DNA of 37,023 nucleotides from a virus. Its lineage: Duplodnaviria > Caudoviricetes. The position numbers and the translations under genes are program-made. Each line of letters begins with the position of its first letter. The first letter of the stretch is position 1. The stretch covers positions 1 through 37,023 of the IMG/VR virus record IMGVR_UViG_3300042295_000748. The stretch is one strand, 5' to 3'. The notes beneath the pieces were generated by a model. That model did not search any database, had not been told where the DNA came from, and saw only the letters and a program-made list of their open reading frames with translations. Below are positions 16,717 through 25,695 of this stretch, in pieces.

Positions 16717-19700
16717 ATGCCATACCAGATCCAGGTCGGCTCTCAGGTTGTCGAGTTCCCTGATTCCGTTGGCCAGGATGAGGCCCAGCGGATTTTGTCC
16801 GAGCAGTTCCCAGCCACTGGCGAGGACATTGCCGGTGCCATGCAGGACCCGGCCTACAAGCCCTCGGTCGACGACTACCTCAAGTTCGAGCAGTACTCCA
16901 AGACCAAGCAGACCGACTGGATCAACACCATCGCGCAGTCGGTGGATGCTGCCGCCGGCCTGATCGGTGGCGCGATCTCCGAGGGGGCACAGGGTGCTGT
17001 TGCCAACCCGCTCAACTACATTGAAGGCGCAGCCCAAGGCACCCGGCAGCTCTACGGCCTGGTCGCACAGTCTCAGGACCCGGCCTCGCCGCTCTTCAAG
17101 TTCAAGGACCTCGTCGCAGGCACAGGCACCGCGGAGTCCCGCTACAATCAGTTCCTCGAGGCCCGCGACTTCGCCAACACCACCGCACGCCTCGAACGCG
17201 GCGAGGAAGGCATTGTTGTCCCGCCTGAATACACCAACCCGGAGTTTGTTCAGGGCGTGTCCATGATCCTTGACCCGACGCTGGCTCTCCCCGGTATCGG
17301 CGAGATCATCGGCGCAGGTAAGCTCGCCACCCGTGCTGTCGGCAAAGGCGCTCAACTCACCGGACGTGCCGTTGCCGGCGTTGCAATGCCTCTGGAACGC
17401 GTTGCAGGTGCTGCCGAGCGCATGACAGCGGAAGCACTTGGAATGGCTCCTGAGGCACTCCGTAACACCGCGGCGACTGCTGGTCTTGCCGGTGCCCTCG
17501 GAATTGCCCCGGAGGCCGCTGCCTTCGCTGCCATCCCCGCAGGTATCCGTACCGCACGCGAGGCCGGCGAGGCCCTGACCCGTGCCGGCGAGAACCTGAT
17601 GACCCAGCCTTCGCGCATCGGGCCTCTTGAGGCTATCGGGGCTGCCCCGGGTGCCAACCTGCGCCAGCGTATGCTCGGTGTGGTCGGGCAGTATGGTGGG
17701 GACGCTGCCTTGGATGCCTCGCTGCGGGGTATTGCCGGAGGAATCGAAGGCGCTGCAGTTGGTGCAGGCTTGGGCTTTTTGTCAGGCGGCGAGGAAGGTG
17801 CGGCCGCCGGCCTTGGATCTGGCCTTGCCCAGGGCGCAGCCGGTGCCCTCGGTGCCCGCGGCTTCGAGCGGCTCACAGGCAAAGCCGCCAAGGAGGCCCG
17901 TGCCGGCGACCTCGGGCGATTCATCGACGCCCAGCAGGATCCGACGACCAAGGCGCTGTTTGAGCGTGTCAGAGACCAACACGGCGTCGATACGGCCTCG
18001 GCACTGATGGACGTCGAAGGACTGGTCAAAGGTCGGTTTGGCGATGTTGACGTAAAGTACCTTTCAGACACTGACTTTGTTGATCAGTACAAGGGCCGTG
18101 CCCGTGGTGTTCAGGTTGAGATTGGAGACCGCCCGACCATTGTCATCAATGCCGACATCCTCGGAAAAGGCAAAGGCGACAGCCCGTTGTACACTCTCGG
18201 ACATGAGCTGTTCCATGCTCTCGAAAAGAGCGAGCAGCTCGCAGGCGGTGCAACTGAGATCAAGAACGCTCTTGTCGGACGCTGGGTTCAGGAAGGCGAC
18301 ATCACCCGCAAGCTGGCCGAGGGCGCTTTCAATGACGCCGAGATCGAGGCCCGCTTCAACCAGTACCGCGACAAATTGGGTGCTGGCAGCCCGGAGCGTG
18401 CCGACCAGCTCGCCCAGTACGACACCATCGACAAGAAAGCTGGCTATGTGGCCTCGGAGCTGGCCGCTGAACACTTTGCAGCACTGATTGCTGGTCAGAA
18501 GCCGGACGCCATGCTCAAGGGCTTCTCAGGCCTCACCAGACAGCTTCTGGATGCCGCACTGACGCAGAACGCCAGCAAGGCCATCGCAAACGCTGCTGCG
18601 TCGATTGAGCGCACGTTTGGCGTGAAGCCGACTGACTCAGTCCTGTTTCCGGATCTCAAGCAGGCCTCGCCTCAGGTGAATGCCATGCTGCGCGACTTGG
18701 TGCGTGCCCGTCGCAAGCTGGACGAGAAGATCATGCTCGATGACAGCCGCGGTGGCCGCGTGCTGAAGCCGGAGGACGTTTCCAACCCGTTGGCAGCAAA
18801 GGAACTGGTCGACCTTGGGTTGGCCGAGCAGATGCCCGATGGCAGCATCAGGAACCTTTCCAGCGAAGAGATCCGAGCACGCGACGACAAGGATTTGACC
18901 TCGTTGCGATCCATCACCGAGAAGATACCGGGGGCTCGGATGGTCGACGGTGAAATCACCGGCAGGTTCAGTCCGGATCAGCTCAGTGCCATCGAGCAAT
19001 CCCAGACGATCAGCTCTCGGATGAAGGACAAGATCCGAGCAGTCAATCTGGCAATCGAGAACGGCAACAGCCTATTCGTCACCTACTTCGCCGCACTTCG
19101 ACGAGTGAGGAACAAGCTCACCAAGAAGTACTCTCCGAAGTACGACAGTGGCATTCGTGTCAGCGAGCGCGAGTTCTCTCCGTACAGCTTCAAGATCACA
19201 AAGGCTGACAACCCGGTGGTCAACGCCATCGACATCACCAAGGTCCGAAACGAACTCAGCAAGCTGCTGAAGAAGGATGGCAGCATCGGTGGCCTGTGGA
19301 GCAACACAGATGGGTTTATGACCGATCTGGCGAGGTACTTCACCAACCTCGACCAGAAGGAAGGTGCTCGCCGTTCTGCGGAGATCTTCGGAGTTGAGAA
19401 GGCCAAGTTCCTCGGTGACTTCGTGGGCGCTGCTGAGAAAGGCGGAAGCAAGTTCGTTCGCAGTTTCCGGCTGGATCGTGTTGGCTCGATGTCTCCGATG
19501 GACTTCAAAGCGAAGTTTTCCGAGGAAGCCTATCAGCTCTCGAAGCAGCGCTGGATGCCTGCCGAGACCATCGGCGACAAATCGGTCATCAACTCCGACG
19601 AGGGCTACCGCATCATCAGCGGTGCCAAGCACAAGCTCTACAGTCCCGATGGAAAGCTCATCGGAATCTACGACACCCAAACCCAAGCAGAAAGGAAAGC

Positions 19701-21747
19701 AGATGCCACTCAAGCAAGGCTACAGCCAGAAGTCGATCAGCAGCAACGTGTCCCGGGAGATGAAGTCCGGCAAACCGCAGAAGCAGGCGGTGGCAATCGC
19801 GCTCTCGGTGGCGCGGAAGGCGGCCAAGAAGGCCGGCAAGAACTCGGGACGGTTCGACAAGCGGGGGATGTAAGGTTCATGCCGGACGGCACAAGCGATG
19901 GGCTTGCCGTTCTGGATGATGTGCTGAAGCTAGAGCTTCCGCGTAGACCCAAGGTCATCGACATTGCCAACGCATTCCAGAATATGTTCGGGAAGGCGAT
20001 TGAGTACCGCAAATCGAACCCGCAGGACAACGCTCGGTTGGTCAACCTGTTGGTTCAAGAGATCGACCGTGCCGTCAAGCTGCACCCCGAGGCCAAGGGT
20101 TGGTACGACGAGAACGTCAAACTGACGATGGACGTGATGCGGGATCTGGACCCGGATCTGGCCAAGCCCGAGAACGACTTCATCTTCAAGGCCATCCTGG
20201 CGGCTACGTCGGATGGCAACAAGGTAGGCCCACAGTTTCAACAGACTTGGAAGGAGTACAGCAACTGGAAGAACACCGGGGAGATTTCTGGTGAGTTCGT
20301 GTCCGGTGATCGCATTGAGAACATCCAGACCAACCTGGAAATGCTCAACGAGTTCATCAAGGACATCGGCTGGGAGAAGACCAAGGACTTCATGGTGCAG
20401 AAGGGCACAGTGAAGGATTTGCGCCAGGCCTTGGTCGACGTCTTCGGTTGGACCAAAAAGCAGGCCGCCGGTGTGGGATCTTCTGAGCGTGTCGACGAGG
20501 TGGTTCCGTTTGCGGTAGTGCTCGGTCCCAAGCTGGGGTCGTTCTTCAACAACCTGTACGGCGACTTCTCATCGGTGACCATGGACCGCTGGTTCATGCG
20601 CACACTGGGACGCCTGACCGGCACCCAGGTGGCACCGCTCTCAAAGGCTAAGCTGCGCGAGATGCGCAACAACCTGCGCGATGCAGTCGCCAGGCTGACC
20701 CCGTCTGAGTTTGAGATGCTTGGAGTCAAGCGTGGCGATCTTAAGGGCACGTCCATCGACGGTGCTGCCACAACCATCTCCGGCAGGTTCTCCAAGAAAG
20801 CCCTGCGTGAGACGGCTAAAAAATCCTCTGAGGCCGGTCAATCTGCGCTCGAGGAAACAAGAAAGTTTGCAAACGCTCTAAAAAAGGGCTTGAATCCCCT
20901 AGTCGAGGCTCCGGTCGATGGCACCCATCGGCGCTGGATTCGTGAGCGTATCGCAGAGGTTCAGTCGGAACTGCGTTCCCGCGGCATTGAGCTGGAGAAC
21001 GCGGACCTGCAGGCCGTGCTGTGGTATCTCGAAAAAGAACTCTATGAAAAACTCAACTACCGCAGCAAATCAGGAGAGTCAGACTATGCTTCCGCAGCCT
21101 CCTCCCTCTATCAGTCAGTGGCTGGACGACCGTCTGACGTCTATGCAGGAGGAACAGGACGAGTACGCGCAATCGGGAGCACTGGAGGCAGCGAAGGAAT
21201 GGGCGCAGGCCAAGCGAGCCAAGCGGCTGGGCCTGAAGTAGGCAGCCAGCGCTTCATGCCGGTGGATGAAAACACCGGCCTACCTCTCAATCCTGACAAG
21301 ACTGTTACCGTCTATCACCACACAAACAAGACGGCAGCAGAAGCAATCAGGCGCACCGGAGTGCTCAAATCAGCCGGTGAGCCTGACGTGTATGTGACTA
21401 CGGAAAAGTCCCCAACAACCGGCTATGGTGATGAGGTTGTTGCTATCAAAGTTGATCCCAAAAAACTGCAGATCGACGATCAGTTTCCTGATGGAAGGAC
21501 TGACTTCAGATTGTCAGTGGGCAAGCCTGGCGGATCAATGAAGGTCGCTGTTGATTCCAGTGAGCGCTTCATGCCTGTGCCCGACTCCTCAATGCCCGGC
21601 GCCTACTCCTTCCCCGGTGGCTACCGGGCACTCCCGGGCAAGGCCAAGGGCAGTCTCCGCCTCTACGGCCCCGCAGGCAGCCTGATCGGCATCGCAGCCA
21701 GCCTTGACGAAGCGCAACGCATCATCCGAAAGAAGTCCAAGCAATGA
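16717..21747 (+). CDS. Large ejection-type polyvalent protein (zincin peptidase, HhH-glycosylase-like and ART-like domains)
   Basis: 1676 aa; G/A-rich hydrophobic region, HELFH at 18202-18216 with downstream SELAAE, four R[FW]MP motifs, GPKLGSF..N..VTMDRW..LQAVLW domain, TVYHHT..VYVT..YG domain. Confidence 0.8.
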   Translation: MPYQIQVGSQVVEFPDSVGQDEAQRILSEQFPATGEDIAGAMQDPAYKPSVDDYLKFEQYSKTKQTDWINTIAQSVDAAAGLIGGAISEGAQGAVANPLNYIEGAAQGTRQLYGLVAQSQDPASPLFKFKDLVAGTGTAESRYNQFLEARDFANTTARLERGEEGIVVPPEYTNPEFVQGVSMILDPTLALPGIGEIIGAGKLATRAVGKGAQLTGRAVAGVAMPLERVAGAAERMTAEALGMAPEALRNTAATAGLAGALGIAPEAAAFAAIPAGIRTAREAGEALTRAGENLMTQPSRIGPLEAIGAAPGANLRQRMLGVVGQYGGDAALDASLRGIAGGIEGAAVGAGLGFLSGGEEGAAAGLGSGLAQGAAGALGARGFERLTGKAAKEARAGDLGRFIDAQQDPTTKALFERVRDQHGVDTASALMDVEGLVKGRFGDVDVKYLSDTDFVDQYKGRARGVQVEIGDRPTIVINADILGKGKGDSPLYTLGHELFHALEKSEQLAGGATEIKNALVGRWVQEGDITRKLAEGAFNDAEIEARFNQYRDKLGAGSPERADQLAQYDTIDKKAGYVASELAAEHFAALIAGQKPDAMLKGFSGLTRQLLDAALTQNASKAIANAAASIERTFGVKPTDSVLFPDLKQASPQVNAMLRDLVRARRKLDEKIMLDDSRGGRVLKPEDVSNPLAAKELVDLGLAEQMPDGSIRNLSSEEIRARDDKDLTSLRSITEKIPGARMVDGEITGRFSPDQLSAIEQSQTISSRMKDKIRAVNLAIENGNSLFVTYFAALRRVRNKLTKKYSPKYDSGIRVSEREFSPYSFKITKADNPVVNAIDITKVRNELSKLLKKDGSIGGLWSNTDGFMTDLARYFTNLDQKEGARRSAEIFGVEKAKFLGDFVGAAEKGGSKFVRSFRLDRVGSMSPMDFKAKFSEEAYQLSKQRWMPAETIGDKSVINSDEGYRIISGAKHKLYSPDGKLIGIYDTQTQAERKADATQARLQPEVDQQQRVPGDEVRQTAEAGGGNRALGGAEGGQEGRQELGTVRQAGDVRFMPDGTSDGLAVLDDVLKLELPRRPKVIDIANAFQNMFGKAIEYRKSNPQDNARLVNLLVQEIDRAVKLHPEAKGWYDENVKLTMDVMRDLDPDLAKPENDFIFKAILAATSDGNKVGPQFQQTWKEYSNWKNTGEISGEFVSGDRIENIQTNLEMLNEFIKDIGWEKTKDFMVQKGTVKDLRQALVDVFGWTKKQAAGVGSSERVDEVVPFAVVLGPKLGSFFNNLYGDFSSVTMDRWFMRTLGRLTGTQVAPLSKAKLREMRNNLRDAVARLTPSEFEMLGVKRGDLKGTSIDGAATTISGRFSKKALRETAKKSSEAGQSALEETRKFANALKKGLNPLVEAPVDGTHRRWIRERIAEVQSELRSRGIELENADLQAVLWYLEKELYEKLNYRSKSGESDYASAASSLYQSVAGRPSDVYAGGTGRVRAIGSTGGSEGMGAGQASQAAGPEVGSQRFMPVDENTGLPLNPDKTVTVYHHTNKTAAEAIRRTGVLKSAGEPDVYVTTEKSPTTGYGDEVVAIKVDPKKLQIDDQFPDGRTDFRLSVGKPGGSMKVAVDSSERFMPVPDSSMPGAYSFPGGYRALPGKAKGSLRLYGPAGSLIGIAASLDEAQRIIRKKSKQ
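19703..19873 (+). CDS. Nested +1-frame gene: small basic MPLK..KQAVAIAL protein (56 aa)
   Basis: MPLKQGYSQKSISSNVSREMKSGKPQKQAVAIALSVARK...; 51 of 56 codons end in G/C (hand count); AAGGA 6 nt upstream of the ATG. Confidence 0.75.
   Translation: MPLKQGYSQKSISSNVSREMKSGKPQKQAVAIALSVARKAAKKAGKNSGRFDKRGM
21044..21241 (+). CDS. Nested +1-frame ORF (65 aa; alternative start 21086, 51 aa)
   Basis: ...QWLDDRLTSMQEEQDEYAQSGALEAAKEWAQAKRAKRLGLK; G/C-ending codons favour this frame over the host frame; AGGAG at 21072-21076 precedes ATG 21086. Confidence 0.55.
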   Translation: MKNSTTAANQESQTMLPQPPPSISQWLDDRLTSMQEEQDEYAQSGALEAAKEWAQAKRAKRLGLK

Positions 21748-25286: not shown

Positions 25287-25322
25287 CACACTTTAGGCCC
25301 GGGTGGGGCCAATACCACCCAA

Positions 25323-25347
25323 CCAGGGGCGCGACTGGCCAACGCGC
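25323..25347 (+). promoter_or_regulatory. Predicted H-type RNA pseudoknot in gene leader (copy A)
   Basis: S1 CCAG/CTGG, L1 GG, S2 GCGCG/CGCGC, L2 A, L3 CCAA; 15 nt before ATG 25363. Confidence 0.55.
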
Positions 25348-25362
25348 ACAACTCTCCAAACC

Positions 25363-25695
25363 ATGACCACTCTTTCCAACCTCATCAGCGCTCTGATCAT
25401 CGTCGAGTCATCCGGCAACGATCAGGCCATCGGCGACAACGGACGCGCCCTGGGCCCCCTGCAGATCCACCGCGGTGTGGTTCTGGATGTGAACCGGATC
25501 ACCGGTAGTAACTACCGGCACCAAGACATGACCAACAGGGTGGCGGCCCGGGCTGTGTGCGAGGCCTATTTGAAGCACTACGGCCGCGGAGCCACCACCG
25601 AGCAGTTGGCTCGCCGTTGGAATGGGGGGCCTACCGGAGACCGAAAATCTGCCACCGAGGCCTACTGGGCCAAGGTTAAGAAGCAACTGAAATGA
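25363..25695 (+). CDS. Lysozyme-like / lytic transglycosylase family protein
   Basis: ALIIVESSG (catalytic Glu), GDNGRALGPLQI, ARRWNGGP, YWAKV motifs; ATG 25363 preferred. Confidence 0.8.
   Translation: MTTLSNLISALIIVESSGNDQAIGDNGRALGPLQIHRGVVLDVNRITGSNYRHQDMTNRVAARAVCEAYLKHYGRGATTEQLARRWNGGPTGDRKSATEAYWAKVKKQLK

Follow-up and report, generated by a model that had tools for sequence, protein, structure and literature searches.

A giant phage polyvalent protein with motif-bounded exchangeable cassettes and nested genes, and related gene arrays in bacteria

The 37-kb stretch of DNA analyzed here is IMG/VR virus record IMGVR_UViG_3300042295_000748 (hereafter the window, 37,023 nt over its whole length). 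It carries an SU10-type capsid gene, genes that look tail-like, and a primase/helicase arm, and lake metagenomes hold DNA near-identical to it. Our subject is its gene at 16717..21747, which encodes a giant polyvalent protein of 1676 amino acids (aa) and is the last of the putative internal-virion genes, with a tail fiber gene following; its parts as listed below lie, like the gene itself, on the plus strand. The constant N-terminal region (16717..17916), Gly/Ala-rich from about aa 200, is likely the packaging/ejection part, and we infer a virion location for the whole protein solely from the position of its gene in the structural module. There follow a zincin metallopeptidase domain (17917..18726) with HELFH at 18202-18216 and the third-ligand Glu581 at 18457-18459, and a predicted WYL-fold domain (aa ~717-940, 18865..19536). 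Four junction motifs divide the remainder: RWMP at 19549..19560 and RFMP at 19873..19884, 21250..21261 and 21565..21576, the second and third being the left and right borders of an exchanged cassette. Between motifs 1 and 2 lie a 55-aa beta-rich domain (copy A, 19555..19704) and a nested open reading frame in the +1 frame (ORF1, 19703..19873); between motifs 2 and 3 lie a 404-aa cassette with a predicted HhH-GPD glycosylase fold (19879..21090) and a second nested +1 frame (ORF2, 21086..21241); an ART-like cassette of 105 aa (21256..21570) lies between motifs 3 and 4, and copy B of the 55-aa domain (21571..21747) ends the protein. Both nested ORFs stop 2-11 nt from the following motif. An initial annotation, made from the sequence alone, had reported HELFH, a downstream SELAAE and the RWMP/RFMP motifs. 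All were confirmed, with HELFH at aa 496 (putative catalytic Glu497), ELAAE at aa 581 and RWMP/RFMP at aa 945, 1053, 1512 and 1617, and the nested ORFs were located where it had put them.

All counts out of 121 refer to a close set made up of the window protein and the best 120 of 226 matches; a distant set comprises 110 homologs of the giant protein. All cassettes of the close set are joined at [RK]-aromatic-M-P, motif 1 is present in 121/121 proteins, and 118/121 finish with a terminal domain of 57-63 aa of the copy B kind, the remaining three looking incomplete at that end. When the proteins were split at the motif into cassettes, the strict pattern gave 76 architectures, the inclusion of variants (RNMP, YFMP) gave 84, and a count in which ART-PolyVal variants were merged gave 78; 25 cassette classes occur at least twice, and there are 88 junction types. 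Comparison of 55 equal-length cores gave 132 pairs that are at least 97% identical in the core, 123 of which have different architectures, and identity extends just 2-5 residues beyond the motif Met in all 525 comparisons. In two loci (L075 and L076), whose core identity to the window is 34-42%, detectable DNA similarity to it is found solely at 19876-21262, a common stretch running from motif 2 to motif 3 with ORF2 included. In lake assemblies, contigs break at 19856 and at 21231-21260, and read depth is higher over the common parts than over the cassettes, the depth over ORF1 including other phages' homologs. A k-mer analysis placed 90/422 breakpoint ends and 139/341 starts within 6 aa of a motif, compared with a background of 5.5%; the other breakpoints fall mostly in the linker that holds ORF1, inside ART-PolyVal variants, or at motif variants outside the count. 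By these sequence comparisons, cassettes are exchanged between phages at the motif, which probably serves as the crossover point as a by-product. The initial annotation had asked whether cassettes vary and move between motifs: L075, L076 and the architecture counts answer that they do and rule out a fixed domain order, and with motif and HExxH conserved and the +1 frames intact, none of the sequence patterns that it had listed against its own proposal was seen.

The 39 loci provide 135 distinct junctions, in which Arg is encoded by each of its six codons and Pro by each of its four; F, Y and W interchange, as do R and K, and silent sites vary freely, a pattern of conservation as protein and not as DNA. 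FMP is the most enriched tripeptide of the distant set (15-fold), and the general form of the motif is aromatic-x-Pro with x being M, S, Q or L, as FSP, FLP and FQP occur in other lineages. In 45 proteins with at least three motifs each, x is identical within the protein in 0.77 of pairs, against 0.36 after shuffling. In the window, [FWY]MP occurs once in the 7944 aa of the 21 other ORFs and the junction motif itself is absent from them, and this confinement to the giant protein fits a reader acting in cis. Together with the 15-fold enrichment of FMP, the near-absence elsewhere shows that the motif is no product of chance. A prohead-protease site common to virion proteins was considered for the motif and rejected on the same absence, and a site-specific DNA repeat was rejected because the codons of the motif vary.

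The peptidase active site is kept throughout: HELFH is present in 121/121 close proteins, and the H, E and H of HExxH together with Glu581 are invariant across 25 distant alignment rows. An AlphaFold model of aa 401-998 (pLDDT 80, pTM 0.56) retrieved no match from the PDB with Foldseek at E<=1e-3. Structural re-alignment of aa 401-670 pointed to zincins of the PPEP and lethal-factor types, which tie as nearest folds at Z about 6; PPEP-1/2/3 (Z 5.4-6.1) and the single-stranded DNA (ssDNA)-activated zincin PprI (Z 5.3) are among the matches. The WYL region, which the initial annotation had missed and which we add to the constant core, matched CapW (Z 8.5, root-mean-square deviation (rmsd) 2.9, 90 residues aligned), BrxR (Z 8.4) and PafBC (Z 8.2). 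RSFRLDR in the alignment consensus fits R-x-F-R-L-D-R, which we take to be the WYL signature; Pfam WYL matched 1 of the 25 rows, at E 0.055, and no helix-turn-helix (HTH) was seen in the core alongside the WYL fold. That nucleic acid activates the peptidase through the WYL domain is conceivable on these models and on the whole unlikely. In three relatives (L074, L115 and P0200), the 55-aa domain, the linker with ORF1 and the glycosylase/ORF2 cassette known from the window are attached to a different core, one in which BLASTP detects no similarity to the peptidase or the WYL domain of the window. Judged by this comparison, the whole array passes between very different cores.

Turning to the cargo, the model of the glycosylase cassette (DUF7178-like, pLDDT 87) found no PDB match with Foldseek at E<=1e-3, and a PDB sequence search also found none. 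In structural alignment against 48,161 structure chains, the top 16 all have the HhH-GPD fold, led by Ogg (Z 9.8, rmsd 4.4, 193 aligned) and then NTHL1 and EndoIII; the model is helical, so its Z scores are middling. The predicted structure, two-lobed and helical with an HhH, thus bears out the glycosylase-like domain of the initial annotation as an HhH-GPD fold. Lys1272 and Asp1290 are invariant in 19/19 sequences, and their catalytic equivalence is suggested by their spacing of 18, presumably like that of EndoIII. The cassette shares its predicted fold and an HhH with Lys and Asp 18 apart with the HhH-GPD DNA glycosylases (Ogg, EndoIII/NTHL1, AGOG; also QNG1 and PUGT), and differs from them in its large insertions and the lack of a PDB sequence match; a nucleoside hydrolase and an amino acid:DNA transferase belong to this fold group as well. 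Structural relatives of the cassette occur in other giant phage proteins, and six other first-slot cassette classes have similar Lys/Asp/Trp motifs by eye, only class 19 being linked by profile. We found no mention of DUF7178 in the literature searched. The ART-like label (H-Y-D type) of the following cassette comes from its motif and the Atlas lead Tox-ART-HYD1 (0.92; 137/256 features), with a phrog_6170 match at E 5e-5 and no Pfam match. Copies A and B of the 55-aa domain, presented initially as two copies of one domain, are related by profile (E 6.7e-6), a kinship that direct BLASTP did not recover, and 79/90 copies in distant homologs begin at the motif. Pfam-named cargo in the 24 homologs scanned comprises ART-PolyVal, GNAT, PBECR5 and DUF7178. 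Cassette classes 7, 14 and 20 (about 300 aa) and 18, 10, 5, 3 and 2 are common, have no Pfam family, and are candidate effectors. Tiny cassettes of 9 and 35 aa between two motifs (P0001, P0074, P0103, P0013) are likely deletion scars fusing a cassette start to an ART-PolyVal end, and the giant ORF of a 63-kb phage (L066) exceeds 3155 aa, with at least 7 FMP junctions and many more cassettes.

ORF1 encodes a basic 56-aa product of the phrog_2423 family (E 4.9e-20) and is nested in +1 at every close locus covering the region, and also in L064. Of 39 unique loci, 38 agree in all 21 nt around its start; across these 39 loci its first 35 codons have a nonsynonymous-to-synonymous (N/S) ratio of 0.22 in +1 versus 1.87 in frame 0, an upstream control being reversed. 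The two highest peaks of +1 codon usage in the giant gene fall on ORF1 and ORF2, and on the sequence evidence both are real genes. They had been described initially as overprinted on the giant gene; young overprints they are not, since it is the +1 frame that is under selection, with the linker as a by-product. Homologs of ORF1 occur in 346/50,697 phage records; in the three records inspected they are separate genes located in head or late modules. A loose first look at three complete distant relatives did not find ORF1. A role as a cassette inhibitor was rejected, because ORF1 lies next to the constant core, is a member of a widespread family of stand-alone genes and is absent from the bacterial arrays described below. 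It is instead an old phage gene captured beside the core, a passenger of another function and probably not an inhibitor.

ORF2 (51 aa, with a possible upstream start at 21044) is the candidate cognate inhibitor of the glycosylase cassette. It follows the glycosylase in all close copies, is recognizable in relatives down to 38% domain identity, and by these distributions is linked to and inherited with the cassette. Of the proposal that +1 ORFs travel with specific domains, the part concerning ORF2 therefore stands and the part concerning ORF1, next to its constant core, falls. PHROG and Pfam hold no family for ORF2 or the other cassette-linked nested ORFs. Its codon usage favors +1 (0.48), a value reached in 1.4% of background windows. 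The +1 frame is open in 16/17 selected loci, which is weak evidence since the 43-codon threshold was set afterwards and the linkers, poor in Leu/Val/Ile/Met, lack +1 stops anyway. In L087, L093 and L094 the ORF ends with the glycosylase, and the +1 ORF there is a regular downstream gene overlapping it, just where polymorphic toxins have their immunity genes (PMC5576092). Further +1 ORFs lie at the ends of classes 19, 21 and 22/23 and at the start of class 9, and none of this kind was found in ART, GNAT or short cassettes. The idea that each cassette can carry its own nested partner thus holds for some cassettes, the glycosylase type and one other, and gained no example from the ART cassettes. 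In a distant phage (L086), two tandem nested +1 ORFs follow the glycosylase, the second of class-9 type.

A profile search retrieved 36 ORF2 homologs, the genomic context being known for a minority of them; 20 are fusions of 83-96 aa that join the front half of the class-9 nested gene to ORF2. A metagenome scan yielded 18 loci (14 inspected), of which L109, L110, L111 and L116 are not giant genes, the rest being four unrelated helper-ATPase matches and otherwise phage copies; a scan of GTDB added L127. These five loci hold four distinct arrays, as L110 and L111 bear the same one. Each consists of two to four stand-alone tandem genes whose homologs are the nested genes of classes 4, 9 and 19 (ORF2 and those of two other cassettes). 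Enzyme domains and ORF1 are absent from the arrays, and their DNA identity to the phages, 76-83%, is confined to the linkers. Ratios of nonsynonymous to synonymous polymorphism (pN/pS), pooled over non-independent pairs with no multiple-hit correction, are 0.40 in the nested frame versus 1.70 in the old host frame for bacterial copies of ORF2 (n=3, the L111 copy being missed by the pattern) and 0.49 versus 1.27 for those of class 19 (n=5). In the dead frame, the array spacers read QRFMP, QRFML, RVML and QRFQI, so that the motif has decayed in 3/4 of those shown; read as sequence fossils, these decayed RFMP motifs show the direction from phage to bacterium and a motif that decays without the polyprotein. 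The arrays thus derive, by sequence homology, from phage junction DNA.

The arrays lie close to anti-phage genes of the BREX and DISARM types. Their neighbors are BrxA, BrxB and a DUF1559/N-methyl gene (L111), a DrmD-like helicase (L116), an SNF2 helicase (L109 and L127), and BrxL with DUF4268 (L127). L127 lies on a 51-kb chromosomal contig with a P-type ATPase, sigma-70 and a histidine kinase, in a 4.6-Mb metagenome-assembled genome. No stand-alone array was found in viral contigs by a scan that was insensitive and missed a known nested phage copy too, and no glycosylase was found in genome G011, which may be incomplete. Directly upstream of the arrays lie a conserved 350-aa gene and an SNF2/SWIM helicase (L127:4155-7183, L110:28-1077, L109:150-1793), possibly an undescribed defense module; upstream of the L110/L111 array the helicase has shrunk to a 57-aa stub. 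After the last array gene in L111 (1020-1080) and L116 is a fragment that we take to resemble the C-terminus of a tyrosine recombinase.

By its testable features the giant protein is a polyvalent protein. Like those of phages (accessible text of PMC5512222), it is a large multidomain protein with an HExxH+E peptidase and a mosaic architecture, its homologs carry ART-PolyVal, PBECR5 and GNAT cargo, and we found both a zincin metallopeptidase (MPTase) with HExxH and a downstream Glu and unrelated conflict domains in variable combinations. Autoproteolysis of polyvalent proteins has already been proposed (Iyer et al. 2017, PMC5512222), and the accessible part of that source names no junction motif, nested genes or WYL domain for them ('linker', 'overlap' and 'glycosylase' have 0 matches). 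A polyvalent protein has been found in virions and proposed as an ejection protein, according to the available portion of 10.64898/2026.04.10.717836. What is novel here is the junction code, the WYL-peptidase core, the nested partners and the host-side copies; a literature search, mostly without subscription papers, returned nothing on polyvalent junction motifs, cassette-linked nested genes or host arrays.

Other known systems share single traits with this one. Polymorphic toxin-immunity systems, including phage MuF toxins (accessible text of PMC5576092), likewise combine variable effectors with a small partner ORF directly behind, and here too a small, co-inherited ORF stands directly behind the effector. 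In contrast to them, the giant protein has several internal cassettes and not one C-terminal tip, the partner is out of frame, and no MuF match occurs among the window or homolog proteins scanned. Partner genes are reportedly also known without their effectors, as orphan immunity arrays, and the four arrays described above likewise hold tandem partner genes without effectors, under purifying selection, although here the orphan copies are bacterial and the effector is in the phage. The hidden HNH insertions of the ShiLan type in phage methylases (PMC11855218, as far as accessible) resemble the present case in being real out-of-frame genes within an open phage frame; in contrast, the small peptides here are tied to neighboring cassettes, with no homing and no endonuclease, no out-of-frame HNH being among the family matches of the window and nested ORFs. 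PPEP-1/2/3 possibly have a similar zincin fold, level in score with the lethal-factor type, and the invariant Pro of the motif is in keeping with them, but they are secreted stand-alone enzymes with Pro-Pro substrates, whereas the motif here is aromatic-x-Pro. The ssDNA-sensing WYL regulators (CapW, BrxR, DriD, PafBC) share the predicted WYL fold, which is here joined to a peptidase in a phage protein with no HTH seen.

We propose that the polyprotein is packaged in the virion and injected into the host, a step in which we have considerable confidence. The constant core (zincin and predicted WYL fold) would cut at the aromatic-x-Pro motif and free the enzyme cassettes; we think such self-cleavage rather probable, with the x|Pro bond a guess from the PPEP-like fold. 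Nested ORF2 would inhibit its glycosylase, shield the producing cell and stay behind when the enzyme is packaged, a role that we favor by a narrow measure. A cassette in mid-ORF cannot have a downstream immunity gene, so for joint inheritance its partner must sit out of frame in the linker. The proposal that nested genes might be inhibitors gains independent circumstantial support for ORF2 from the bacterial orphan arrays and none for ORF1. That the arrays protect their hosts strikes us as slightly more doubtful than credible. Taken whole, the account of an injected self-cutting polyprotein with exchangeable cassettes, an ORF2 antidote and bacterial copies is finely balanced; its boldest form, in which phages would arm the self-cutting polyprotein with antidote-hiding, DNA-attacking cassettes and bacteria would steal, strip and stack the antidotes in defense islands, is put forward tentatively. 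Cleavage and inhibition are the weakest links of the mechanism.

Several observations weigh against this account. The uniformity of x within proteins is inflated by relatedness, since kin share labels; on a tree of 59 x changes 12 times, no peptidase residue tracks it cleanly, and no specificity residues co-varying with it stood out. Motif 1 is modeled as the first strand of a folded domain straight after a helix and not as a loose linker, and peptidases of this kind are also present in N4 vRNAP, ArdC and TraC1, which nevertheless travel without being cleaved (PMC5512222). The phage copies of ORF2 show only weak constraint (pN/pS 0.63 vs 0.85), substitution tests on it are equivocal with no clear +1 preference, and the +1 peptides of L087, L093, L094 and the distant nested cases are not recognizably homologous to it. 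Ribosome-binding-site-like words are weak evidence, since Shine-Dalgarno sites are weak on most genes of the phage. The arrays are rare, with 4 distinct loci and 1/401 genomes of the order of L127 (none in the 400 others), in most cases their ORF2 forms a fusion with half of a different nested gene, and the array-bearing bacteria are no more than putative hosts of these phages.

The strand position of motif 1, the uncleaved precedents (PMC5512222) and the 55-aa copies that begin at the motif speak for another reading, in which the motif is a docking or threading signal with the core, the 55-aa domain or the ejection channel as its partner, the protein being delivered whole and its peptidase hitting a host target. 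We think this unlikely, as some 25 unrelated cassette classes, of differing chemistries that fit release, are bordered by the motif, the catalytic residues are never lost, and the nearest folds include Pro-directed endopeptidases (at Z about 6 only). Far less plausible is a motif that has no protein role and is mere DNA microhomology (about 11 nt) for in-frame recombination: exchange points do coincide with it, and a uniform x per protein could stem from a common gene pool, but silent sites vary freely, the F/Y/W and R/K swaps keep the chemistry, and aromatic-x-Pro is kept for very long and decays once its frame is dead. Nearly as improbable is the notion that the nested ORFs are translational leaders, with ribosomes starting anew at the following RFMP, on its Met, and producing free cassettes with no need of proteolysis. 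ORF1 does stop 5 nt ahead of the motif-2 ATG, which has a Shine-Dalgarno-like word (-8.6 kcal/mol); however, the other three motif ATGs have none, and many lineages, judged in part on a quick tree, have Ser, Gln or Leu in place of the Met, grounds on which the motif Met was also rejected as a general internal start, and in addition re-initiation would yield no C-terminal ends and leaves the amino-acid selection on the nested peptides aside. A stronger competitor, still short of what we would favor, holds that the nested genes are independent small phage genes, for superinfection exclusion or host takeover, swallowed by read-through, with the bacterial copies blocking phage in some other way or a mobile island protecting itself. 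It holds for ORF1, and it suits the fast divergence of ORF2-position peptides, the fusion of ORF2 in arrays, and what we presume to be an integrase-like fragment after ORF2 in L110/L111. The strict one-to-one linkage with cassette type speaks against it for ORF2, as does the content of the arrays, which gather precisely those genes that are linked to cassettes and leave out ORF1.

Since 2017 polyvalent proteins have been predicted to undergo processing, with no cut site named, and the giant protein offers four exact candidate sites together with natural motif variants. What passes for a 'linker' in a giant phage protein can be a gene missing from the annotation. If the arrays are antidotes, the usual direction, in which phages steal defense parts, would be reversed, and the arrays would be an undescribed anti-phage defense built from stolen phage immunity genes, each inhibitor paired with an effector. 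If true, this would also give a route to inhibitor-effector pairs, to a new family of glycosylase inhibitors, and to host assignment of uncultured freshwater phages.

Elsewhere in the window, the Shine-Dalgarno site is weak or absent at most gene starts, a hint to the host group. Within the Gly/Ala-rich part of the giant gene, 17287-17560 and 17617-17890 show a mild +1 codon preference, and open +1 frames of 134-143 codons at 17603-18007 and 18056-18487 are probably compositional. Beyond the tail fiber gene, in the early-side region, lies an ORF that looks lysozyme-like by eye (25303-25695).

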